56,456 bases of DNA from a virus (lineage: Duplodnaviria; Caudoviricetes). The translations under genes and the position numbers were made by a program. Shown piece by piece: positions 2,161 through 55,950 of the stretch; positions within the stretch are counted from its first letter, which is position 1, and every line of letters begins with the position of its first letter. A model generated the notes under the pieces. The model was not told the origin of the DNA. It saw only the letters and a program-made list of their open reading frames with translations, and made no database searches. The stretch is taken from positions 1 to 56,456 of the IMG/VR virus record IMGVR_UViG_3300042995_000016; one strand, 5' to 3'.

Positions 2161-2988
2161 TCAGGCGGCGGGGGCGAGCGCGCGATCGAGCGCTGCGAGC
2201 GTGACGGCGTCGGCACGGCCGGTGGGCGCGAGGCCGGCCGATGTCTGGAAGCGGCGCACGGCGGATGCGGTCGCGGGCCCGAACACCCCATCCGCCCCGG
2301 CCGGGCCGAGGTAGAGCCCCGCGAGCGTGAGCTGGACCTGCAGACGGCGAACCTCGTCGCCCCGGGCGCCGCGCTCGAGGACGGGCGCCGGCCCGCGCGG
2401 GGCCGGCGGCGCGTCGAGGTCCCGGAGCGGGACGAGCGGGGCCGTCTGGCTGTCGGGCGTGAGGAACAGCGCCCGCTCCTCCCGCCTGCGATTGACCAGG
2501 CCGGGGAGCACCTTGCCCCCCGCCATGCGCCATAGCGGGAACTGATCGGCCGCGCCCTGGACGTCGCCGGCCAGGAGCTTGCGCCTGAGCGTCGAGTCGG
2601 CGAAGTCGGGCTCGCCCCCTTCGGCGCCGAGCCCGATGTTGTAGGTGAGCGAGACGAGCGCCGAGTATTGGTTGTCGCTCATGGGCACGGGGCAGAGCCG
2701 CGCCACGCCCGCCTCGAAGCGCGCGAGGTCCGCGTCCAGCAGCGCCTCGGCCTCGGCCCGCGTCAGGCCCGAGGGCCAGCGGCGGCGCCACTCGGCGTGA
2801 GCGAGGTGGCGGTCGCCCTCGCCCCTGAGCTGGCGCCCGCCCACCGTGAGCGCGTGGCCCCAGCCCACGGTCCAGACGCGGGCGGGGCACAGCAGAGGTT
2901 CGAGGGCGGGCGTGGTCGGGTCGCCGTCGTGCAGGCCTTCCCAGCGCCTCACGATGGTGACGCCCGCAACGTTGATGCGTCGGGTCAT
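2161..2988 (-). CDS. endolysin: GH24 lysozyme plus C-terminal peptidoglycan-binding domain
   Basis: WEG...WTVGWGH, ALVSLTYNIG, GLVNRRREERALF; DGVFGPATASAVRRFQ PG-binding motif. Confidence 0.93.
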   Translation of the reverse strand: MTRRINVAGVTIVRRWEGLHDGDPTTPALEPLLCPARVWTVGWGHALTVGGRQLRGEGDRHLAHAEWRRRWPSGLTRAEAEALLDADLARFEAGVARLCPVPMSDNQYSALVSLTYNIGLGAEGGEPDFADSTLRRKLLAGDVQGAADQFPLWRMAGGKVLPGLVNRRREERALFLTPDSQTAPLVPLRDLDAPPAPRGPAPVLERGARGDEVRRLQVQLTLAGLYLGPAGADGVFGPATASAVRRFQTSAGLAPTGRADAVTLAALDRALAPAA

Positions 2989-3006
2989 CGGGGATCTCCG
3001 GGCATG

Positions 3007-3029
3007 AAAAAGGCCGCTCGAGGCGGCCC
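3007..3029 (-). terminator. rho-independent terminator between tail and lysis genes
   Basis: GGCCGC-TCGAG-GCGGCC hairpin followed by a T-run on the minus strand. Confidence 0.6.
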
Positions 3030-3054
3030 GGGGGAGACGAGATGCGGGAAGGGG

Positions 3055-3525
3055 TCAGAGGGTCGCGGCGAACCGGAAGAAGTCGTCCACCTCGGCCGAG
3101 CCCATGCCCTGCGCGGCACCGATCGTCTCGGTCAGGGGGTGGCCCCGCTCGAAGGAGGTGGCGCCGGACAGGAGCATCTCGGCCGCGAAGCGCTCGTCCG
3201 GGTCCTCGATCAGCCCGAGCATCGCGAGCAGTGCCGGCGGGAGGTCCCCGGCCTTGACCGCGGCCAGGGCCTCGGCCTTGGAGATGCGAGGCTCGCCCCC
3301 AGGGCCCGGCACGACCGCGAGCGCCTGGAAGAACTGGCGGTCCGAGACGGCGCCGGGCACGGGCGCGACGGGCGCGGCCTTGACCACCTCGCCGTCGACG
3401 TACCTGTCCTCGGCCGCGGTGCCGTCGGGCGCCTCGACCCAGCGCAGGGGCGCGGCCACCTCGAAGGGCTCGTCCGCCACCTGGGCGATGCGCTCGCCCT
3501 CGATCAGTGCGTATCTCATCGTCAT
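3055..3525 (-). CDS. tail fibre assembly/accessory protein
   Basis: Follows the fibre gene; VSDRQFFQAL...FERGHPL...EVDDFFRFAATL pattern. Confidence 0.65.
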   Translation of the reverse strand: MTMRYALIEGERIAQVADEPFEVAAPLRWVEAPDGTAAEDRYVDGEVVKAAPVAPVPGAVSDRQFFQALAVVPGPGGEPRISKAEALAAVKAGDLPPALLAMLGLIEDPDERFAAEMLLSGATSFERGHPLTETIGAAQGMGSAEVDDFFRFAATL

Positions 3526-3535
3526 TCCTCTCCGA

Positions 3536-4462
3536 TCACCAGCGCACGACGACGACGCCCGCGGCGCCCGCGCCCGTGTTGGTCCCGTCCAGCGAGCCCG
3601 ACCCGCCGCCGCCGTAGCCGGCGCCGCCGCCGCCGTAGCTCGATCCGCCGCCGAGCAGGCTCGACCCGCCCGAGGCGCGCCAGCCGGTCGTCGTGCCGCC
3701 GGCGACGCCGGGGCCGCCGCGCGCGCCGAAGTCGCCGCCCGAGCCCGCGCCGCCCGCGCCGCCCGCGCCGCCGAAGCTGCCGCGCGTGCCGCCCGCGCCG
3801 CCCGTGGCCGAGCAATGCGCGCCGAAGCTGCTCGTGCCGCCCGTGCCGCCCTCGGCGTCCGCGAGGCCCACGGAGCCGCCGGCCCCGACCGTCACGGCCA
3901 CCGTCGCCCCCGGCGTGAGGCCGGTCACCACCTTGCGGGCGTAGCCGCCGCCGCCGCCGCCGCCGCCGCAGTTGGTGGCGGCCGAGCCGCCGCCGCCGCC
4001 GCCGCCGCCGACCAGCTCGACCAGGACCTCGGTCACGCCGGCCGGCACGGTGAAGGTCCCGGACGACGCGAAGACCTGGCCGTTGCGCGGGAAGAGGCCC
4101 GTGGCGTCGGCGCCGACGACTCCGGCGCCGGCGAGGCTGACCCGGAGATTGGCATCCAGGAACAGCCGCCGCTCGATGGGAATCTCGCAGTAGACCCGGA
4201 CCGTGCCGGTGAAGTTGACCAGCGCCGTCGTGCCGAGGTGGTTGCCCAGGACGGCGGTTCGGGCGAGCGTGTTCGGCGAGCCCAGGGCCAGCGTCCCCAG
4301 GCCCTTCTCGAACTGGACCCCGTCATCGATGTAGTAGTAGACGAGCCCGGCCCCGAGGGCGGCGGCGAAGGAGCGCCGGCCGGTGGCCGCGCCCCCCAGG
4401 CTGACCGTCCCCGTCCCGGGGTTGCTGGCGGTCTCCAGCACGTAGTCCTGCGCGCGGCTCAT
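3536..4462 (-). CDS. glycine-rich tail fibre protein
   Basis: Virion-attachment-like N-terminus, GTFTVPAGVT..VELVGGGGGGG Gly-rich domain, ends GVVVVRW. Confidence 0.8.
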   Translation of the reverse strand: MSRAQDYVLETASNPGTGTVSLGGAATGRRSFAAALGAGLVYYYIDDGVQFEKGLGTLALGSPNTLARTAVLGNHLGTTALVNFTGTVRVYCEIPIERRLFLDANLRVSLAGAGVVGADATGLFPRNGQVFASSGTFTVPAGVTEVLVELVGGGGGGGGSAATNCGGGGGGGGYARKVVTGLTPGATVAVTVGAGGSVGLADAEGGTGGTSSFGAHCSATGGAGGTRGSFGGAGGAGGAGSGGDFGARGGPGVAGGTTTGWRASGGSSLLGGGSSYGGGGAGYGGGGSGSLDGTNTGAGAAGVVVVRW

Positions 4463-20225: not shown

Positions 20226-21905
20226 TCAGAGGAGGATCAGCTCGCGGTCCTCGTACACGGACCGCGCGCCGCCCAGCGGCTTCGGGTCCGTGGCCATCAG
20301 CGCCATCGCGTTGAAGAGCGCGATCAGCGGGTCGATCTTCGCGGTCCCGGCCGTCTGCTTGGTGATCAGGATCGCGTTGCCGCGCGCCTCGACGCGCGCG
20401 TTGCCCACGCACCAGGCCATCAGTTCCTGGCCCGCGTGCACCAGGTTCCCCGAGGCGAGCTCGCGCTCCGTCGTCTTGATCGCGCCGGCGATCTTCCAGC
20501 CCTGCGGGATCCCGACGATGGCGTCCCTCGGGATCCCCGCGTCCACCATCGCGTCGACGATCGCCCCGATCCCGACCGGGTCGAGCCCGATCCCGCCCAG
20601 CAGCCCGGCCTCCCAGACCGCCACGACCACGTCGCGGAACTCCTCCACGTCCTGGCCGATCCGCTCCACCAGGACGAGGTCCCCCGCCTCCGCCAGGTCG
20701 CGGAGCCTCGGCGCGATCTCCTGCCGGCGCTCGAGCGCGACCGGGTGCGCCCAGGCCCTGTTCCACAGGAGCAGCTCGCGCGTGTCCCGGTCGCGCCCCA
20801 GCACCGCCAGCCCCAGCAGGTCGTCCAGCCCGCCGCCGTCGCCGCCGACCACGACCACGTCGCAGCGCGCCACGATCTCGTCCGGGGTTAACGACCGGCA
20901 TCCCTGGGCCTCCCAGTAGGCCGCGCCCGCCCAGCCGTCCGAGCGCAGCCGGAGGCCGATCTCGACGTTGAAGTGCTGGGACGCGAGCAGCGCGAGCTGC
21001 GACGGGCCCTCGCGCTCGGCCTTGGTCAGCTCCCGCCGCAGGAACGCCTCGTCGACCGAGCGCCCCATGTTGGGGTTGACCATCGGCCAGCGCCGCGGGT
21101 CCTTCCAGCCGTCCCCCTTGCAGACGCGGTCCGGCAGCTCGTAGATCACCGGCAGCAGCGGCAGGTCGAGCTTCCCGTCCCGGACGTCGCGGGCGACGCC
21201 GAGCTCGGCCTTGAACACCCCGGCCGGCGGCTCCTTGGACTGGGTCGTGATCTGGACCATGAAGCCGTCGGGCCGGGCCGCCAGCGCGCCCCGGATCTCC
21301 ACGAAGACGTCCGCCGCGTTCGCCTTCTTCGCGAAGACGTGCGTCTCGTCCACCAGGATCCCGGTGGACTTCGAGCCGGTGATGACGTCCGTGTCCGCGG
21401 CCTTGATCAGGATCGAGGCCCCGGTCCGCCGGTGCGTGATCGTCCGGATGTGCCGCTGCGGGTGGAAGAGCTTCGCGAGCTCGGGGTCGAGCTTGATGAT
21501 GCCCGAGGCCTGCTTGAAGGCGATGTCGGCGATCTGCTTGGTCGGCGCGATCAGCAGGAACTCGGCCTCGGGGCGGCGGTTCACGATCACCGCCACGACC
21601 ATGAGCGCCGCGGCGTAGCTGGACTTCCCGTTCTTCTTCGGCACCAGGAGGAACACCTCCTGGACCAGCCGCCGGTTGGCCTCCGCGTCGTAGCTCCCGA
21701 ACAGGACCTCGACGATGCGCCGGAACCAGTCGCCCGCCGCCTCGGCCATCCGCGGCGTGCCGATGACGTCGGGCAGCCGCAGGCGGTCGAAGATCCGGAG
21801 CGCCCGGTCCGCCTCGGCCCGGAAGAGCGGCAGGTCCGGCACCAGCGGGCGCCCCGCCTCGAGGCGGTCCTCCCAGTCCGGGCAGGCGGTCGACCACGCG
21901 CCCAT
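20226..21905 (-). CDS. terL: terminase large subunit
   Basis: VPKKNGKS Walker A, ILVDETH Walker B, GGDGGGLDDL and KIDPLIALFNA nuclease motifs. Confidence 0.96.
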   Translation of the reverse strand: MGAWSTACPDWEDRLEAGRPLVPDLPLFRAEADRALRIFDRLRLPDVIGTPRMAEAAGDWFRRIVEVLFGSYDAEANRRLVQEVFLLVPKKNGKSSYAAALMVVAVIVNRRPEAEFLLIAPTKQIADIAFKQASGIIKLDPELAKLFHPQRHIRTITHRRTGASILIKAADTDVITGSKSTGILVDETHVFAKKANAADVFVEIRGALAARPDGFMVQITTQSKEPPAGVFKAELGVARDVRDGKLDLPLLPVIYELPDRVCKGDGWKDPRRWPMVNPNMGRSVDEAFLRRELTKAEREGPSQLALLASQHFNVEIGLRLRSDGWAGAAYWEAQGCRSLTPDEIVARCDVVVVGGDGGGLDDLLGLAVLGRDRDTRELLLWNRAWAHPVALERRQEIAPRLRDLAEAGDLVLVERIGQDVEEFRDVVVAVWEAGLLGGIGLDPVGIGAIVDAMVDAGIPRDAIVGIPQGWKIAGAIKTTERELASGNLVHAGQELMAWCVGNARVEARGNAILITKQTAGTAKIDPLIALFNAMALMATDPKPLGGARSVYEDRELILL

Positions 21906-22498
21906 CAGTTCGGCAGCCCCACGCCGAGGTCGTCGCCCCACTCGGTGCCGGCGCCGGCGGTCTGCGCCTCCTCCTGGGCCAGGGCCTTCTTGCCCTGGCG
22001 CGCCGGGGCCGCGGTCGGCCGCATCATGCCGAGCACGTGGGCCATCTTCGTGAGCGCGCCGAGCTTGTCGTGCATCTTGACCTTGAGGGTGCCGTCCTTG
22101 CTCTGCGACACCTCGGCGATGGCCGCCGCGACGCCGTCGGTCAGCTTGTCGCTGTCGACGATCACGACCTCGGTCGCCACCGCGAGCCGGGGCTCGCCGG
22201 TCTCCTCGTCCTCGACCATCTCGGTCACGGCGGCGCGCCAGCGCACGAGGTCGCGGATGTCCGAGAAGCCGAGCTTGGCGAGTTCGGCCATCACCCGCTC
22301 GGGCGTCACCCCGGAGTGCGCGGCGACCAAATTCCTACGGCGTTCCAGCTCCGCGGCCACCTTGGGGTGCCTTAGCAGGCGGCTGGCCTCGACCTCGGCC
22401 GAGCGCTCGCTGTAGCCGGCCTTGATCGCGGCCCGCTTCCCGTTGGGATCCGCGAGGTACGCCTCGACGAACCGCCGCTGCTTCTCGGTCATGGACAT
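21905..22498 (-). CDS. terS: terminase small subunit
   Basis: TEKQRRFVEAYL...AAIKAGYSERSA...SRLL; KMHDKLGAL. Confidence 0.93.
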   Translation of the reverse strand: MSMTEKQRRFVEAYLADPNGKRAAIKAGYSERSAEVEASRLLRHPKVAAELERRRNLVAAHSGVTPERVMAELAKLGFSDIRDLVRWRAAVTEMVEDEETGEPRLAVATEVVIVDSDKLTDGVAAAIAEVSQSKDGTLKVKMHDKLGALTKMAHVLGMMRPTAAPARQGKKALAQEEAQTAGAGTEWGDDLGVGLPN

Positions 22499-39299: not shown

Positions 39300-39713
39300 C
39301 CGTCCCGTTGGTCGTCCCGACCCCGCGGAGGTTCCCGGCCTCGTCCCAGTGCTCGACGGTCCCTTCGCCCAGGGCGACGCGGAGGCCGGGCTTCGGCGGG
39401 GCCAACCGGCACCCGTCGGCGGCGCATGGGGCGTGAGCGTCCGGAACGTGCACCTGCGCAGCCGCCAGCCGCTCGGCGGCATCGGCCGCGCGCTCCAGCT
39501 CGTCGGCGAGACGGGACGCCTGGGCGATGGCGTCGGCCATGCCAAGGTCAAGCGAGGCCGCCCCGGCCCTGGGACACCGCACGCCGCGCGCGGCGGCGGC
39601 ATCGGGGCACGGCCCCTCGCAGTGCGGCGTGCAGCGAACGTCGGCGACCATCGTCGTATCTCCTCCGCCGGGGGCGGCCTGGGGGTGGTGGGGGAAGGGC
39701 GGCATGGCGGCGT

Positions 39714-39941
39714 TCAGGCCGCGGACTTGGCGAAGTGCTCGACCAAATCGGGCCGAAGTTCGCTGGCACTGACCGCGCCGCCGAAGGCACGGATCACCTC
39801 AGGGATTTCCTCGGCCGGCAGGGTTATTTCCGCGCCCCATTTCTTGATGGTGTTTCGCGGGCGCTTCAGGCGCCGCGCCAACTCGGCGAGGGTGATCCCG
39901 TGCTTCCGGCAGAGCTGAGTGAGGGGGCGTGCGTTTCGCAT
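39714..39941 (-). CDS. cro: Cro-like repressor
   Basis: LAELARRLKRPRNTIKKW HTH; VSASELRPD signature; divergent from cI. Confidence 0.88.
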   Translation of the reverse strand: MRNARPLTQLCRKHGITLAELARRLKRPRNTIKKWGAEITLPAEEIPEVIRAFGGAVSASELRPDLVEHFAKSAA

Positions 39942-39948
39942 GCCCACG

Positions 39949-40042
39949 TTTGTACCACCACATGGTACAGGATGCAATGACGTTGATCGGAGAATCGGAC
40001 CATATGAAGGTCCTGCCGAAATGTACCATCGTTAGGTACATT
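39949..40042. promoter_or_regulatory. OR region: three operators with divergent PR and PRM
   Basis: TGTACCA-CCACA-TGGTACA (39951-69), CGGACCA-TATGA-AGGTCCT (39996-40014), TGTACCA-TCGTT-AGGTACA (40022-40); minus-strand TTGCAT-17-TACAAA; plus-strand CTGCCG-18-TACATT. Confidence 0.85.
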
Positions 40043-40048
40043 CGGCCC

Positions 40049-40393
40049 ATGTCTAAGCAGGCTGGAACAACGAAGACCAAGAGCCGACTGGCCGGGCTGC
40101 GCGCGAGGCGCAAGCTCACCCAGGAGCAGCTTGGCGAGATGATTGGCGCGAACCGCGAGAAGATCGCGAAACTGGAGCGCGGCGATATCTGGTACTCGCT
40201 CGACAGCGCAACTCAGATATCACGAGCCCTGAACTGCGGCATGTGGGAGCTAATGCCGGATGCTCCGGATCTTACCCAAGACGACCTCCGCATTTTGGCC
40301 GCGCTGCACCGGATGAACGAAGACCAGAAGATGCAGTTCCTGACTTTGTTGGAGACTTTGCTAAACGGGGCGGCGCCCGACCGTCAGCAATAG
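40049..40393 (+). CDS. cI: CI-like XRE repressor lacking an S24 peptidase domain
   Basis: LTQEQLGEMIG..REKIAKLERG HTH; only 114 aa. Confidence 0.88.
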   Translation: MSKQAGTTKTKSRLAGLRARRKLTQEQLGEMIGANREKIAKLERGDIWYSLDSATQISRALNCGMWELMPDAPDLTQDDLRILAALHRMNEDQKMQFLTLLETLLNGAAPDRQQ

Positions 40394-40496
40394 CCTCTGC
40401 GGCATCGGCCAGTAGGCTGCGCATCGCGGGGGGGACTGCACGAACAAGCGTCAGCCAAGCTCTATCTTCATCGGACAGCCCCATCGCGCCCCCCAT
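40272..40496 (-). CDS. putative SOS-induced antirepressor
   Basis: Lies downstream of a LexA-boxed promoter; LSDEDRAWLTLVRAVPPAMRSLL resembles the CI C-terminus. Confidence 0.55.
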   Translation of the reverse strand: MGGAMGLSDEDRAWLTLVRAVPPAMRSLLADAAEAIADGRAPPRLAKSPTKSGTASSGLRSSGAARPKCGGRLG

Positions 40497-40515
40497 CGCG
40501 CCAGCCTAGCAACCA

Positions 40516-40545
40516 GAACATAATCGGAACATCTCGCCTCGTCAC
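40516..40545 (-). promoter_or_regulatory. promoter overlapped by an alphaproteobacterial LexA box
   Basis: GAAC-ATAATCG-GAAC (40516-40530); minus-strand GTGACG-17-TATGTT. Confidence 0.75.
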
Positions 40546-40621
40546 GCACATCGGTGCATGCGCTTGATGCATCAGCATTGAGGAGCACCCCGGCTCACCG
40601 GCGCGGGCCGGGGCGCCACTG

Positions 40622-41059
40622 TCACGCGGCCCTCAGGCTGAGCGCGCACATCGCCGCCTGTCTAGCGGCCAACGCGCACATCGCCGCTCCCTTGCAAGCG
40701 CCCCGTGGCGCGTCCTTGTAGTTGGACACCAACTCGACGCCGTGCTCGGCGAAGGCGGCCCTTGTGACCTGCCATGCCTCGGCGAACGCCGCCGTGCCAT
40801 AGGCGTTCGCGTCGTGATAGAGCTCGACGCCGCCCATTGCCGCGGACACCTGGGCCAGCAGTTTGGGATCCTCGATCACTATATGCAGCGCCGCGTCGGC
40901 CGCCTCGGTCATCGCGAGCGTGGCGGACGGGTTCCGCGCAAGATGATCGAGCAGCGCGCTCATGTCGCCCACAGCAACCTCGGCCTGCTCGGGCGCGAGC
41001 CCGCCAGCGACCAAGCCGGCGACGACACCAGAAAAGTCGAGTCCCATCACTCCCTGCAT
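40622..41059 (-). CDS. small protein with a GRDP/DUF1399-like core and a repeated AAMCAL tail
   Basis: ADAALHIVIED...LYHD...AWQVTR..F; cgcgcacatcgccgc at 40643 and 40673. Confidence 0.7.
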   Translation of the reverse strand: MQGVMGLDFSGVVAGLVAGGLAPEQAEVAVGDMSALLDHLARNPSATLAMTEAADAALHIVIEDPKLLAQVSAAMGGVELYHDANAYGTAAFAEAWQVTRAAFAEHGVELVSNYKDAPRGACKGAAMCALAARQAAMCALSLRAA

Positions 41060-41071
41060 GTCAGCCTCTCC

Positions 41072-42127
41072 TCATTGGCGCGTCAGCGACGCGCGTGTTA
41101 TCGCCGCGATCCTCATGACCAGGCTCGTGATGTCGCCCAGCCCGGCGGCGGCGAATCCCGACCGACGCAGCCGCGCCTTGATGCCCTTGACTTGGTTGTA
41201 GGCTGTTCCTGGATCTACGCTCCGCGCGTCCGCGATCTCCCGGACCGAGAGGCCGGCGCCCAAGAGCGCTGTGACGTGGGCCTCGGCGGGCGTGAGGTCG
41301 AAGGTCCGCCCGAGGGCACTGCGGATCTCCTCCTGGTCCTCTCCGAAGGCGGCGACGGCTAGGACGGCCGTACCGGCGGATGCACCGGGCGAGACCGCGA
41401 GCAGGTGGGGGTCCCCGGCGCCCGGACGGCGCAGGGGAACGATGGCCGGCTCCTTGCGCCCGGCGCAGGCCGCGAGGACCGCCTGGGCCAGAACGATGTG
41501 GTCATATCTGTCGGCGGCGCGGATGCCGTCCTCAGTCTCGAGGATCCCGTCGCCCCGCTCGGCCAGCAGCCGGAACGCGGCGTTGGCGTGGATCAAGCGC
41601 TTGGCTTGGTCGACTAATCCCACGGCGAGGCCGACGGCGTCCAGCGCCGACTGCAGCCCTCGAAACGCTTCGCTGATCTTGGATGCCCACACGACGCCGA
41701 GCCAGTTTTGCGCGCCGTCGAAGTACCGCTCCATTCCTGTCGCCTTGACCGCGACGCGCGCCTGCATCGACATGCCACCGTCGAGGCGCAGGTGGGAGAC
41801 CAGCATGCGTCCCGCGGGATAGACGTTGATAAAATCCATATCGGTATGCCGACGGGCACAGCTCGCCGTCTCGGCGTAGAGACGCGGGTTCTCGGCGGCA
41901 AGGGGGTTGCCGTTGAAGCCGTGGCGCACCAGAGCATAGATCAGGTCTTTGTAGGTGTCCTCCGGCCTGAACTGGAAGCAAGGCCACTGTTCACGTTGTT
42001 CTTGATTAGCCCAGAGGACACGATCCTCGGCATCGAAAATGACGATACCTCCGCCGAGGCTAGCAGCGGCCTCCGCAAGCTCGCGCCCCCGATGCGGCAG
42101 TCCTTGTAGTGCAAATGAACTACGCAT
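41072..42127 (-). CDS. PAS-PAS-LuxR HTH transcriptional regulator
   Basis: GIVIFDAEDRVLWAN (PAS), VGLVDQAKRLIHANAA (PAS), FDLTPAEAHV..LL..GLSVREIA (LuxR HTH); lower GC. Confidence 0.85.
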   Translation of the reverse strand: MRSSFALQGLPHRGRELAEAAASLGGGIVIFDAEDRVLWANQEQREQWPCFQFRPEDTYKDLIYALVRHGFNGNPLAAENPRLYAETASCARRHTDMDFINVYPAGRMLVSHLRLDGGMSMQARVAVKATGMERYFDGAQNWLGVVWASKISEAFRGLQSALDAVGLAVGLVDQAKRLIHANAAFRLLAERGDGILETEDGIRAADRYDHIVLAQAVLAACAGRKEPAIVPLRRPGAGDPHLLAVSPGASAGTAVLAVAAFGEDQEEIRSALGRTFDLTPAEAHVTALLGAGLSVREIADARSVDPGTAYNQVKGIKARLRRSGFAAAGLGDITSLVMRIAAITRASLTRQ

Positions 42128-42423
42128 GCTTTTCAGCCGTGATCGTCAGCGATTAGCTGCCCATATCCAACCTTGGACACCTTTCGGTGTCAATGAATAT
42201 ATTCTTGCGCTAGCAATGATGCACGAGAAGCAAAGTCGCATTGTTGCGCACGCGCCGCGCTTCCCCAGATGCAAAGACCTCGCCGGCCGGAGCGGGTGGG
42301 ACTGCCTGGGGTAGATCTGTTCATAGGCGAGCACGACGCCGACTCAGATCGCGGCGAGCACTGCGGCGCTCATGAAGCCGACGACTGTCCATATCTGAGT
42401 ATGACATGGATGGCAAACAGTCG

Positions 42424-42480
42424 TGTACCACTTCAAGGTACATTATTCGCTTGCACTGACGTACCATCACGCGGTACATT
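42424..42480 (+). promoter_or_regulatory. OL region: two operators and PL
   Basis: TGTACCA-CTTCA-AGGTACA (42424-42), CGTACCA-TCACG-CGGTACA (42460-78); TTGCAC-18-TACATT. Confidence 0.85.
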
Positions 42481-42577
42481 TTTCCTGCACCGACCGATGG
42501 GGCTACCCCACGACGGCGCTTCCTCCCAACTAGACCGGGGTGCCTGGCGCCCCGGTCGCCTCCCGAGGGCCGGGTCC

Positions 42578-43327
42578 ATGTCGTCAGAGTCAGAGAACCC
42601 CATCGCCGATCCCGTCGTCACCGAGGCGAGCGCGGGCGCCTTCGTCTCGCTGCTCCAGGGGGATCGCGCGATCAACGCCTTCGCCGCCGGCGCGCTCGGG
42701 GCGGGCAGTCTCCTCACCGCCTCGGACGAGGCCGTCGCCGCGCTGCTGCGCGCCGTCGCCGACCGGCTGGCGCCGTCCGTCACCCCCGAGACCGTCGCGG
42801 CCGAGGTCGCCGAGGTCGCGACGGGCCGCTGGTTCCACAGGAAGGCCAACGGCACGCGCCCAGAGGGCTGGTTCGCCGTCGCGAACGTCGAGATCGAGTA
42901 CAGGCATGACCTCGGCTCGACGCCGTGGCGCTTCGAGTTCTGGTCCGAAGAATGCGCGGTGAGGAGCGTCCATGCCGCCACGCTCCCCGAGCTGCGCGCC
43001 GAGGCGCTGGAGGCCGCCGCCGCGATGCCGGCGGAGCGCCCCGAGCCCGAGGCCCCGGCCGAGCGGCCCGCCGCGCCCGGGCTCGACGGCGGCACCCTCG
43101 TCTGCGTGACGGTCGGCGAGGACGGCCACGCCCGCGACGACGGCTACGGCCGCGTCGTCCCGCTCCGGGACTTCCTCGCCGACAACTTCGACGGCCTCTC
43201 CGCCGCCGAGGTGACCGAGCTGCACTCCGCGCTGGGCCGCCGCGAGCCCTGGCGCCACGGCGGCGGCGCCGCGCCGCTCGTCACCGTCACCCTCGCCGCG
43301 GCGGTCGACGCCGCCGAGGTCGCCTGA
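42578..43327 (+). CDS. hypothetical protein, first gene of the PL operon
   Basis: GC3-biased ORF downstream of PL. Confidence 0.65.
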   Translation: MSSESENPIADPVVTEASAGAFVSLLQGDRAINAFAAGALGAGSLLTASDEAVAALLRAVADRLAPSVTPETVAAEVAEVATGRWFHRKANGTRPEGWFAVANVEIEYRHDLGSTPWRFEFWSEECAVRSVHAATLPELRAEALEAAAAMPAERPEPEAPAERPAAPGLDGGTLVCVTVGEDGHARDDGYGRVVPLRDFLADNFDGLSAAEVTELHSALGRREPWRHGGGAAPLVTVTLAAAVDAAEVA

Positions 43328-52904: not shown

Positions 52905-53377
52905 TGCCGGACGCCGGCCACCACCCCGCGCCGCTCCTGACGCTCGAGGAGGCCCGCCTGGTGATCCACCCGGGCGGCGCCGTCACCCTGCACGCCCTCA
53001 AGCAGGCGTTCCGCGACGGCCGCTTGCGCGGGGTCAGGATCGGCCACACCATCCTCGTCTCCCCGGAGGAGGTCGAGCGCTTCAAGTCCAACCCCGCCGG
53101 CGCGCGCCGCGCCGCCAGAGGCCAGCCCGCATGCCCCGCGCCAACCCAGGACCCCGCCTCCGCCTCTTCGGGCCCGACGACCGATTCGGGGCCAAGCGCC
53201 GAGGCGGCTTCGCCGACTACGTCTGGTACATCGTCTGGACCGAATCCGGGGTCCGCCGGGAGCGGAGCACTGGCGCGGGCAAGGATGACCGCCGAAAGGC
53301 TGAAGAGGAGCTCGCCCGCTTCCTCGACGCCCGGGCCCCGCGGGTCGTCGGGCCGCGTCATCCCCATGAGATCCTGA
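52904..53377 (+). CDS. xis: excisionase-like protein overlapping int
   Basis: LLTLEEA...GRLRGVRIG..ILVSPEEVERF; position directly before int. Confidence 0.7.
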   Translation: MPDAGHHPAPLLTLEEARLVIHPGGAVTLHALKQAFRDGRLRGVRIGHTILVSPEEVERFKSNPAGARRAARGQPACPAPTQDPASASSGPTTDSGPSAEAASPTTSGTSSGPNPGSAGSGALARARMTAERLKRSSPASSTPGPRGSSGRVIPMRS

Positions 53378-54438
53378 TCGCCGACGTCCTGGACCTCTAC
53401 GGGACAGAGCACGCGCCGAACGCCACGGACGCCGCCCGCATCGGCCACGCGATCGCGGCGCTGCTGCCCTGGTGGGGCGAGCGCACGGCCTCGACGATCA
53501 CGCTCGAGACGTGCCGGGCCTACTTCCGCCACCGGTCGGCGCAGCTCGCGAAGAAGGAGGCGGAGCAGGCCGAGCGCCGAGCGGCGCGCGCCACGGCGAA
53601 GGCGCGGCGGCTGCACCCCAAGGCCCCCGAGGCGAAGCGGGACAGGACGCGCTCGGAGCTCTCGGCGCCCTCGGACTTCGACAGGGCGGGCAGGGTCTGC
53701 CACCACAACACCGTTCGTCGCGAGCTCGGCGCGCTCCAGGCGGCGCTCGGCTACTGCCACGCCGCCGGCGTCCTGCTGAACCCGCCCGTCGTGTCGCTGC
53801 CGAGCAAGCCGGAGGCCCGTCAGGACTGGCTCGACCGCGACGAACTGGCGCGCCTGCTCCGCGCCGCCCGGCGCGAGCCGAAGGCGAGGGGGCACCTGCC
53901 CTACATCATCCTGATCAGCTACTACACGGCCCACCGCAGGGAAGCCGTCCTGGCCCTGCAGTGGCACCCGAACACCGAGGGCGGGCACGTCGACCTGAGG
54001 CGCGGCCTGATCGACTTCAACCCGATCGGCCGTCCCCGGACGCGCAAGCGGCGCCAGGCGGCCATGCCGATCCCGCCGCGGCTGCTGCCCCGGCTGCTCC
54101 ACCTGCGCCGCACGACCAGGCGGTTCGTGATCGAGGCCGAGCGCCCGGAGGTGGTCGACGGCGAGGTGCGGATGGTCCGCGGCCGCGTGCGCAGCTACAA
54201 GCGCTCGCTGGCCACCGCCGTGCGGGCGGCGGGGCTGACCGGCAAGCGGATCACGCCCCACGTCTTCAAGCACACCGGGATCACCCACCTGATGCAGGAC
54301 GGCGTCGACCCCTGGGCGGTCTCGGGGTTCACGGCGACGTCGATAGAGACCATACAGAAGGTCTACGGGCACCAGCACCCGGACTACCTGCGCGAGGCCG
54401 CGGCGGCGCCCCGCGGCAAGGGAAGGAGCCGCCGGTAG
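53131..54438 (+). CDS. int: tyrosine integrase
   Basis: YTAHRREAVL.LQW, KRR, TPHVFKHT, KVYGH; adjacent to att. Confidence 0.93.
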   Translation: MPRANPGPRLRLFGPDDRFGAKRRGGFADYVWYIVWTESGVRRERSTGAGKDDRRKAEEELARFLDARAPRVVGPRHPHEILIADVLDLYGTEHAPNATDAARIGHAIAALLPWWGERTASTITLETCRAYFRHRSAQLAKKEAEQAERRAARATAKARRLHPKAPEAKRDRTRSELSAPSDFDRAGRVCHHNTVRRELGALQAALGYCHAAGVLLNPPVVSLPSKPEARQDWLDRDELARLLRAARREPKARGHLPYIILISYYTAHRREAVLALQWHPNTEGGHVDLRRGLIDFNPIGRPRTRKRRQAAMPIPPRLLPRLLHLRRTTRRFVIEAERPEVVDGEVRMVRGRVRSYKRSLATAVRAAGLTGKRITPHVFKHTGITHLMQDGVDPWAVSGFTATSIETIQKVYGHQHPDYLREAAAAPRGKGRSRR

Positions 54439-55251: not shown

Positions 55252-55950
55252 ATGGATGGCACGCCGGGGCTCCCCGAGACGCGCTCGAAGGACGCGCTGA
55301 GGACTCACTTCAAGACGCTCCTCCTCATCGCGCAGGCGTCTCGGCTGGAGATGGGGATGGTCGAGGACCGGTACCCGCCGACCGAGGACGAGACGGCCGA
55401 GAGCGAGCGGCGGCGGCGCTGGGTGGACGCGGCGGTCGACCGGGCTCGGGTCAGCCAGCGCCTGCTCGCCCGCATGCCGGCCACCAACCTCGACGAGGCG
55501 GCCGTCCAGCTCGCCGTCGCGGCGCCCCTGGCGCTCAGGCTCCACGAGAGCGCGAAGGCCGCCGGGCAGCCGGTCGACGTCGACGAGGTCGAGGATCTCG
55601 TCTCGCTGCTCTGGTCGGCCGCGGCGGCGGTCGCGAGCCGCGCCGGCATCGACCTCGCGGCCTACGGCATCGCGCCGCCGGCGGAGCTCGCCCCCTGGGC
55701 CGCCACCGCCGACGGCGCCCCGGTCTTCGACACCGCGTTCCAGGCGGCCGGCGGGGACGGCTTCGACGACGCGGTGAGCGCGCTGAGCGCCGAGCCGCTG
55801 CCGGAGGAGGCGACGCCGGAGATGCTGCTGGCCGGGCACCGGGCCGCGCCCGGCGAGGTCTCGAACCTGCTGCGCGCCGAGATGCTGCAGCGGATCTGGC
55901 AGGCCATGGTTCGGTGCGCGCGGCCGCAGGCGACGGGCGACCTGCCGTGA
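55252..55950 (+). CDS. hypothetical protein, outside att
   Basis: SD GGAGG; 232 aa; GTGA-coupled to the next gene. Confidence 0.65.
   Translation: MDGTPGLPETRSKDALRTHFKTLLLIAQASRLEMGMVEDRYPPTEDETAESERRRRWVDAAVDRARVSQRLLARMPATNLDEAAVQLAVAAPLALRLHESAKAAGQPVDVDEVEDLVSLLWSAAAAVASRAGIDLAAYGIAPPAELAPWAATADGAPVFDTAFQAAGGDGFDDAVSALSAEPLPEEATPEMLLAGHRAAPGEVSNLLRAEMLQRIWQAMVRCARPQATGDLP

Follow-up and report, generated by a model that had tools for sequence, protein, structure and literature searches.

During the analysis of the 56,456-nucleotide (nt) virus record IMGVR_UViG_3300042995_000016 (hereafter designated the window, meaning this stretch of DNA at its whole length), we found that the repressor gene cI of a prophage is faced, on the opposite strand, by a small open reading frame (ORF) that converges on cI and stands just downstream of a match to the LexA-binding motif of Alphaproteobacteria. 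We propose that this locus is the SOS-induction arm of the immunity switch of the prophage. A LexA-repressed promoter probably drives a real small protein gene at this site, and on balance we take the encoded protein to be the antirepressor of this CI. CI has no autocleavage domain, so that RecA would be unable to inactivate it directly. In the lysogen, LexA would hold closed the promoter of the small ORF. This promoter would be located on the strand opposite to cI, at a distance of 123 nt downstream of that gene and preceded by a terminator-like hairpin, and the LexA box would cover its -10 element. Upon DNA damage, LexA would be cleaved and a protein of ~70 amino acids (aa) would be made, consisting of a two-helix hairpin core that ends in AAEAIA-GR-PPP and a disordered, unconserved tail encoded antisense to cI. 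Binding of this protein to CI would then release CI from four operators (two OR and two OL), the most likely route being occupation of the C-terminal oligomerisation helices of CI, as in the SinI/SinR and AimX/AimC pairs compared below. The observations behind this proposal are the LexA box and its specificity, the conservation of the small-protein family, the missing peptidase domain of CI, the operator palindromes and the repetition of the layout in Azospirillum phage Cd, all of them made in silico.

The first-pass annotation of this DNA, made from its letters, had reported an exact GAAC-N7-GAAC at 40516-40530, a CI of 114 aa without a peptidase domain, and an ORF that converges on cI and overlaps its last 122 nt; our reading of the sequence and coordinates agrees on each, and Pfam returned helix-turn-helix (HTH) families alone for CI. 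Seen from the strand of the small ORF, the box, GAACATAATCGGAAC, is GTTC-N7-GTTC, and it precedes the two ATGs of that ORF by 19 or 31 nt. A review table and a Caulobacter preprint both give GTTCN7GTTC as the motif of alphaproteobacterial LexA. To compare the window with sites at lexA itself, lexA was sought in 81 alphaproteobacterial genomes and the best 30 loci, of 3.6 kb each, were examined. The exact GAAC-N7-GAAC stood beside lexA in 27/30 loci and nowhere else within these 3.6-kb loci, and the spacers of the lexA-linked boxes were AT-rich, giving the consensus GAAC-CAAACTA-GAAC-A. With a weight matrix built from the 30 lexA-flanking boxes (training sites, 11.2-38.4 bits), the site at 40516-40530 scored 22.1 bits, as compared with 10.2 bits for the runner-up on either strand of the whole window. 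Moreover, when the 228-nt gap was simulated 20,000 times with a Markov model, 22.1 bits were never reached (maximum, 19.9). The matrix is narrow, being trained on lexA promoters with exact cores, and a site whose spacer is atypical is therefore tested conservatively. The exact core occurs three times in the window against 0.68 expected, a count of at least three being found in 3 of 100 shuffles; the other two cores (32761 and 54938) have G/C-only spacers, lie in coding DNA and fall outside the top twelve sites of the matrix. By these sequence measures, the box at 40516 is a real and specific candidate LexA site, the best in the 56-kb window.

It had also been claimed that the box overlaps the -10 of a minus-strand promoter. 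The hexamers, the spacer and the overlap of the putative -10, TATGTT, with the box are all present, whereas the hexamers agree with the consensus at only 8/12 positions and were not listed by a promoter scan. From these sequence features, we infer LexA binding and promoter activity.

The small ORF is unannotated in the source record of the window. Its length of 74 codons is by itself no evidence of a gene, because ORFs are abundant at 73% GC, with 49 of at least 30 aa within 4 kb. An exact 12-nt tandem duplication (CCCCATCGCGCC twice) spans its start and thereby provides two in-frame ATGs, of which ATG 40484 (70 aa, MGLSDED...) is the more likely start than ATG 40496, in parallel with the homologue P0003, which begins MRLSDEE.... 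Homologues were obtained by phmmer against 1.84 billion representatives (P0002, 74 aa, E 5.8e-7; P0003, 51 aa, 5.5e-6) and by a profile search that added P0005 (1.1e-14) and P0006 (3.1e-6); all four are metagenomic, from short ENA or Logan contigs. Conversely, a hidden Markov model (HMM) of the four homologues alone recovered the small ORF at E 5.4e-17 among 737 six-frame pieces of the window, the runner-up being at 0.15. The alignment of the five sequences revealed 14 invariant columns in the core, where exchanges are conservative, and divergent N-terminal extensions and C-terminal tails. AlphaFold2 (AF2) run on the family alignment predicted a helical hairpin (helices 9-20 and 23-37), in which residues 11-40 have a predicted local distance difference test score (pLDDT) above 90; residues 45-74 form a tail predicted to be disordered. 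The core sits in the gap between cI and a 145-aa ORF farther upstream of the small ORF, and the overlap with cI starts at residue 35. Within the overlap, the GC content of third codon positions (GC3) is 0.78 in the frame of cI (0.77 for cI itself) versus 0.29 in that of the small ORF; the coding signature thus stays with cI, and the tail seems to be an unconstrained run-on. Judged by its sequence conservation, the small ORF is a real, conserved protein of a new and rare family with the motif AAEAIA-GR-PPP.

Searches for more members with profile-derived and back-translated AAEAIA-GR-PP patterns in viral, genome and metagenome contigs gave no true member; four genome and six metagenome pattern matches were rejected, the first helix being absent. 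The family profile gave weak partial matches in 20 of 401 alphaproteobacterial genomes, with no member among the eight inspected, and tblastn of the core gave no match against phages or against plasmids. At the level of structure, Foldseek with the hairpin model found nothing in the PDB at E up to 0.001, the family profile found 0 PDB sequences at E up to 10, and the best ESM Atlas score, 0.82, was under the lead level of the tool. As a separate observation, a tyrosine recombinase on a 1.3-kb metagenome contig (L023, 619-1212, minus strand) ends in ...AEAW, 17 residues and AAEAIAEGRIPPPPP, with a spacing from W to the motif equal to that of the small-protein family; this likeness may be a coincidence, a fusion or an overlapping gene.

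For CI, Pfam gave HTH_3 and related HTH families only, with neither a peptidase domain nor an S24 autocleavage domain. In this protein, a linker connects the HTH domain with two helices that are predicted at the C-terminus (77-87 and 91-105); its AF2 model, made from a two-row alignment, is poor (mean pLDDT 53). A Logan assembly contains a 138-aa form of CI (P0004, in the same 90% cluster) corresponding to 39977-40393 (plus strand), called from an upstream start that would reach over the operators. The peptidase domain is absent whichever of the two starts is used. In an index of 5.8 billion proteins, CI recovered only itself. Among viral contigs, a single relative matched CI over its full length. 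It is 35% identical to CI and comes from a phage of low GC content (L001), in which an integrase lies downstream of the repressor and no comparable small ORF was found; the other 15 viral-contig loci matched the HTH part only. The L001 repressor (3986-4312, 108 aa) ends in a like two-helix tail, LNDKEVKIIKAYRQASESMQTAICTLLEI, and the C-terminal hairpin may for this reason be a widespread module of short XRE repressors. Palindromes of the form GTACC-N7-GGTAC occur four times in the window against 0.39 expected, and none of 100 shuffles reached four. From their sequence and placement (Table 1), the four palindromes are probably the CI operators OR and OL. An annotated-style ATG at 42269 would put OL inside an ORF, so that the gene in question probably has its true start beyond 42480.

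Homologues of the regulator encoded upstream of the small ORF, a protein with PAS and LuxR-type regions (hereafter designated PAS-LuxR), led to Azospirillum phage Cd (CU468217). The phage also resides as a prophage on plasmid p5 of A. brasilense Sp7, the two sequences showing no difference in a comparison of 1,340 nt, and its genome is organised like the window. Its order is PAS-LuxR gene 02, gene 03, a hairpin-forming sequence, a LexA box, a small ORF and the convergent gene 04. The box, GTTCGCGTTATGTTC at 2987-3001, is located 27 nt upstream of an unannotated 88-aa ORF (3029-3295), which is preceded by a GGGAGG Shine-Dalgarno sequence and overlaps 180 nt of gene 04. The product of gene 04, a 216-aa HTH repressor, gave an HTH domain only and no peptidase domain. 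The Cd box is the top matrix site in 45 kb of that prophage (16.5 bits), followed closely by a second one (15.2 bits). Both boxes, that of the window and that of phage Cd, contain TTATGTTCT and hold a TATGTT -10-like hexamer. Apart from the HTH, the repressors of the window and of phage Cd are unrelated to each other, as are their small ORFs, and the family HMM found no member in the Cd prophage; a stretch EEVAAGRQP in the Cd repressor was dismissed as coincidence. Unrelated pairs of repressor and small ORF in a conserved frame are as would be expected of specificity partners. As far as sequence comparison reaches, phage Cd is a second, independent instance of the layout. Induction by mitomycin C has been reported for Azospirillum phages (PMC3899980). 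The second Cd site, GGAACGTACCTAGAACG (L068 18028), lies in the gap upstream of a hypothetical gene that precedes HNH and terminase genes; the late region of phage Cd may be a further target of LexA.

The interaction of the small protein with CI was further analyzed by sequence comparison and complex prediction. The first-pass annotation had held that the ORF aligns without gaps to the C-terminus of CI and mimics its helices, and that SOS induction works through this repressor mimic. The alignment did not prove significant. Its 31 positions contain 4/31 identities (BLOSUM62 score, 7), which is matched by 72 of the 82,485 six-frame 31-mers of the window, and hhalign recovers the same register (ORF 6-41 versus CI 74-109) at P 0.087. 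Pfam SinI matched neither the small ORF nor CI at E up to 0.1. The predicted helices coincide at an offset of 68 (ORF 9-20/23-37 versus CI 77-87/91-105), the CI side being taken from the model with pLDDT 53. Complex prediction with CI and ORF residues 1-50 gave interaction scores (ipSAE) of 0.45, 0.46 and 0.45, as compared with 0.05 for the best of three controls; the runs share at least 62% of contacts, and the pLDDT of the partner was at least 66. The verdict of the tool was 'weak support', with no interface reported. Its mark is reached by 58/80 solved complexes and by 2/110 mismatched pairs, and among those reaching it, scores of 0.60 or lower belong to only 7 of the 80 solved complexes and to both passing mismatches.

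On this modelling, it is plausible that the small protein binds CI; both the binding and the choice of the bound surface are inferred. One may reasonably guess that the protein mimics the oligomerisation helices; that it works by replacing the C-terminal hairpin of CI itself is a more doubtful possibility. SinI/SinR of Bacillus subtilis, a chromosomal biofilm switch, offers a parallel, the proposed partner of the small helical protein being the two-helix oligomerisation domain of an XRE-type repressor. As far as the low-confidence CI model goes, the ORF and the C-terminus of CI also agree in predicted helix lengths and register. The window differs from it in the lack of significant similarity between the ORF family and CI and in being a phage switch under LexA. 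Of the claim of SOS induction through a repressor mimic, a LexA-boxed small antirepressor beside a non-cleavable CI is well supported comparatively, whereas neither helix mimicry nor the reinforcement by antisense RNA that the first-pass annotation had suggested as possible is established.

Several points weigh against the antirepressor reading. BLASTP gave no alignment of the ORF with CI in the register described above, the family HMM scored the CI frame at -0.9 bits (rank 247/354), and the hhalign P of 0.087 is accompanied by a probability of 0.66%. The CI model is poor, as its pLDDT of 53 indicates. The complex score falls in a band where, by the account of the tool itself, wrong predictions outnumber right ones if the guess had not been likely from the outset, and no interface was reported that would name a bound surface. 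Among the families of Pfam and PHROGs, no antirepressor family matched the small ORF at E up to 0.1. The support from the four homologues is at the level of protein sequence, and the promoter hexamers are weak. The small ORF of phage Cd has no protein homologues, only identical copies in four A. brasilense plasmids, and shows no likeness to its own repressor. In the related phage phiKM1, no good LexA box was found (top site, 9.3 bits), and the layout is therefore not general. The whole case, moreover, is in silico.

The nearest published counterpart is the AimX/AimC pair of Bacillus phages of the phi106 type, described in a preprint on arbitrium phages (10.1101/2025.11.23.689978). There, AimC is composed of an HTH, a linker and two antiparallel C-terminal helices, dimerises and tetramerises, and is not mitomycin-sensitive by itself. 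The 29-aa ORF of AimX follows closely upon a LexA site, is preceded by the aimP terminator and shares 30 bp with the end of aimC, which converges on it. By binding to AimC, AimX prevents oligomerisation via the two-helix C-terminal domain, a mechanism that the authors of the preprint compare to SinI/SinR (10.1101/2025.11.23.689978). According to this description, the window shares with AimX/AimC a short HTH repressor that is not cleavable and whose C-terminal (oligomerisation) domain is helical, an opposite-strand small ORF that follows a terminator or terminator-like hairpin and a LexA site and overlaps the repressor gene at its 3' end, and sensor or regulator genes that lie upstream in the same direction. 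Unlike the Bacillus phages, the window belongs to a host of another phylum, with GAAC-N7-GAAC, a direct repeat, as LexA motif; it has PAS-LuxR and 145-aa genes upstream instead of aimR-aimP, a protein of ~70 aa as against 29 aa, and an overlap of 122 nt as against 30 bp. The likeness described is one of layout, and the function in the window would be read across from it. The design is already known from Bacillus phages, and what is new here is the protein family and the host group.

The small gene might instead encode a LexA-controlled accessory protein that does not act on CI, its target being the host or the SOS response itself (for instance, a small toxin, an inhibitor of division or a modulator like DinI), with induction proceeding by another route. 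In that case the box and the gene would still be real, and the link of the small protein to CI is a predicted one: the complex score is weak, sequence likeness to CI is lacking, and no known antirepressor family is matched. LexA-controlled phage operons are, moreover, known to carry other genes, for example dinI (Lemire 2011, PMC3121763). We nevertheless regard this explanation as unlikely, in view of a small ORF that converges immediately on a self-uncleavable repressor in two phages with unrelated repressors, of a non-exhaustive Pfam/PHROG scan of the ORFs that found no S24 peptidase or ImmA-like protease, and of the agreement of the layout with AimX/AimC as described.

Another explanation would assign the effect to the SOS transcript itself, which would lower cI expression by convergent transcription or as antisense RNA, the peptide being secondary. 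A transcript from the boxed promoter must indeed run antisense into cI for at least 122 nt, no convincing terminator stands before the 5' region of cI, and antisense action was an earlier hypothesis for aimX (10.1101/2025.11.23.689978). The conservation, however, is at the protein level and in a core that lies almost wholly outside cI, and no Rfam family matches. In the Bacillus phages, the same preprint reports that a start-to-stop mutation of aimX abolished the response, whereas recoding of the overlap had no effect (10.1101/2025.11.23.689978); antisense RNA thus matters little there. We consider this explanation improbable: antisense or convergent-transcription effects on cI may add to that of the antirepressor, and they are unlikely to be the main effector.

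LexA-controlled small antirepressors have long been known in enterobacterial phages, such as Tum of phage 186 and AntC of N15. GfoA, GftA and GfhA of the Gifsy phages are also LexA-controlled antirepressors, and the Gifsy LexA operon (dinI, antirepressor, irsA) is located 1.3 kb downstream of the replication genes (Lemire 2011, PMC3121763). These enterobacterial systems resemble the window in having a repressor without a cleavage site and a small antirepressor expressed from a LexA-boxed promoter after a terminator-like palindrome. The LexA operon of Gifsy, unlike the small ORF of the window, is not convergent on the repressor gene, and the LexA motif of the enterobacterial systems differs. 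For kinship of the small protein with Tum, the Gifsy proteins, Ant or Qtip, there was no Pfam/PHROG match and 0 in the PDB, no direct protein comparison being made. In the literature searched, which left most subscription journals outside, no LexA-controlled antirepressor was found for a phage of Alphaproteobacteria.

In the transcription factor-small ORF (TF-smORF) modules and VqmA-Qtip of Vibrio and Aeromonas phages, the smORF inactivates cI (Silpe et al., 10.1101/2022.09.16.508337). Its gene is divergent from that of the transcription factor and SOS-independent, and the cI is autoproteolytic (10.1101/2022.09.16.508337). The window is comparable in that a phage transcription factor, here with PAS and a LuxR-type HTH, adjoins the small ORF. 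It differs in that the small ORF is co-directional, separated by a hairpin, LexA-boxed and paired with a non-cleavable CI.

The PAS-LuxR regulator is 46.6% identical to gene 02 of phage Cd and also related to Azospirillum plasmid genes. The 145-aa ORF gave no Pfam or PHROG family match and, as a protein, no relative among viral contigs. Both genes are co-directional with the small ORF. The pair also occurs on the A. lipoferum 4B chromid (L069 1165-2689), outside any immunity region, and could be either a moron or a second input to the small gene. Between the pair and the small ORF stands the GC-rich hairpin, which is as well folded in 3 of 200 shuffles and has no U-tract after it; it likely acts as a terminator and so insulates the promoter of the small ORF. 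A 15-nt exact direct repeat, CGCGCACATCGCCGC (40643-40657 and 40673-40687, 30 nt apart), is present near the 3' terminus of the 145-aa ORF, in which it encodes AAMCAL twice, and a partial third copy, CGCACATCGGTGCATG at 40545-40560, abuts the -35 of the small-ORF promoter. The motif CGCACATCG is therewith present three times, starting at 40545, 40645 and 40675. These repeats could be a regulator site or a recent duplication.

The same genes suggest that the main input might not be SOS, the PAS-LuxR and 145-aa proteins driving the small gene by activation or read-through and the box being minor or a chance match. Indeed, in each of the two phages the conserved pair lies immediately upstream of the small gene and runs in the same direction, modules of a sensor-regulator with a small antirepressor exist in Vibrio/Aeromonas phages (10.1101/2022.09.16.508337) and in arbitrium phages, and the 40545 copy of the threefold CGCACATCG motif abuts the -35. 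Nevertheless, we think there is little likelihood of this, since both phages have their best LexA-box candidate exactly at the small ORF, the hairpin parts the upstream genes from it, and the pair is found outside any immunity region in A. lipoferum. The conserved pair beside the small gene hints at a second, non-SOS input. That box and ORF are both non-functional products of chance, in DNA where ORFs are ubiquitous at 73% GC and the promoter match is weak, is very improbable against homologues at E 5.4e-17, 0/20,000 simulations and the recurrence in phage Cd.

A broader interpretation, which is speculative and in our judgement rather unlikely, would make the locus a two-input switch, the alphaproteobacterial counterpart of arbitrium and VqmA-Qtip, carried as a conserved plug-in cassette. 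Its parts would be the PAS-LuxR sensor-regulator, the 145-aa partner, the hairpin, the LexA box and the small antirepressor. Phages would conceivably insert this cassette convergent to any non-cleavable repressor, with the small ORF co-varying with the repressor. Without DNA damage, LexA would hold the small gene closed; PAS-LuxR would sense a cellular or environmental signal and might open the antirepressor gene via the CGCACATCG repeats or by anti-termination at the hairpin.

Table 1 Positions of the features of the window discussed in the text.
Feature	Position	Strand	Remarks
Large terminase	20226-21941	-	
cro-like gene, 75 aa	39714..39941	-	Pfam YdaS_toxin/HTH and PHROG 'transcriptional repressor'
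Putative OR region, two GTACC-N7-GGTAC	39952-39968, 40023-40039 (within 39952..40039)		Between cro and cI
cI, 114 aa	40049..40393	+	Pfam HTH_3 E 6.7e-7; PHROG phrog_3 'transcriptional repressor'
Small ORF, 74 aa from ATG 40496	40272..40496	-	Homologues P0002, P0003, P0005, P0006; overlap with cI, 40272-40393
Conserved core of small ORF, residues 7-43	40368..40478	-	L[ST]DE-W---R-LP---R-L-I-AAEAIA-GR-PP
12-nt exact tandem duplication	40479..40502		Spans small-ORF start
Putative promoter	40517..40545	-	-35 GTGACG 40545-40540, 17-nt spacer, -10 TATGTT 40522-40517
GC-rich hairpin	40584..40617	-	Just after stop of 145-aa ORF; RNA fold z -2.38
145-aa ORF	40622..41059	-	43.9% identical to phage Cd gene 03
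PAS-LuxR regulator, 351 aa	41072..42127	-	Weak PAS matches and C-terminal LuxR/sigma-r4-type HTH
OL-like pair GTACC-N7-GGTAC	42425-42441, 42461-42477		Ahead of plus-strand early-left operon

The induction of temperate phages of Alphaproteobacteria that have a non-self-cleaving repressor has hardly been described. If the antirepressor reading is true, an arrangement in which a LexA-boxed micro-gene converges on and overlaps the gene of a short SinR-like repressor would have arisen or spread in two distant phyla, and this general design would have been missed by annotation pipelines, since the small ORF is unannotated both in the window record and in phage Cd. It would also add a new small-protein family with the sharp motif AAEAIA-GR-PPP, and A. 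brasilense Cd and Sp7, whose phages are reported to be mitomycin-inducible, would provide a culturable test system.

In its general organisation, the window (GC, ~73%) carries structural, replication and modification genes on the minus strand, including helicases, a cytosine methylase and a VRR-NUC nuclease, and this run is ended by a CII-like gene and then the cro-like gene (39941-39714). The latter is divergent from cI and first in the lytic minus-strand operon. Beyond cI, three minus-strand ORFs of 351, 145 and 74 aa head back to cI. A blastn search with 39600-41100 gave no match in the phage collection, and an Rfam scan of 39500-42600 gave none either. Among plasmids, the matches of the PAS-LuxR protein are to Azospirillum alone (6/6 records); the best matches of the portal are to Komagataeibacter phage phiKM1 and Azospirillum phage Cd, and those of the terminase to Labrenzia and Agrobacterium phages, that is, phages of Alphaproteobacteria. 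On account of these matches, the host is probably an Azospirillum-like member of Rhodospirillales. The plus-strand early-left operon extends from ~42.5 kb to a tyrosine integrase gene (53131-54438) and a tRNA-Ala gene. The integrase gene lies ~1.1 kb from this tRNA-Ala(CGC) gene (55572-55672), and this end is probably the attachment end of the prophage.

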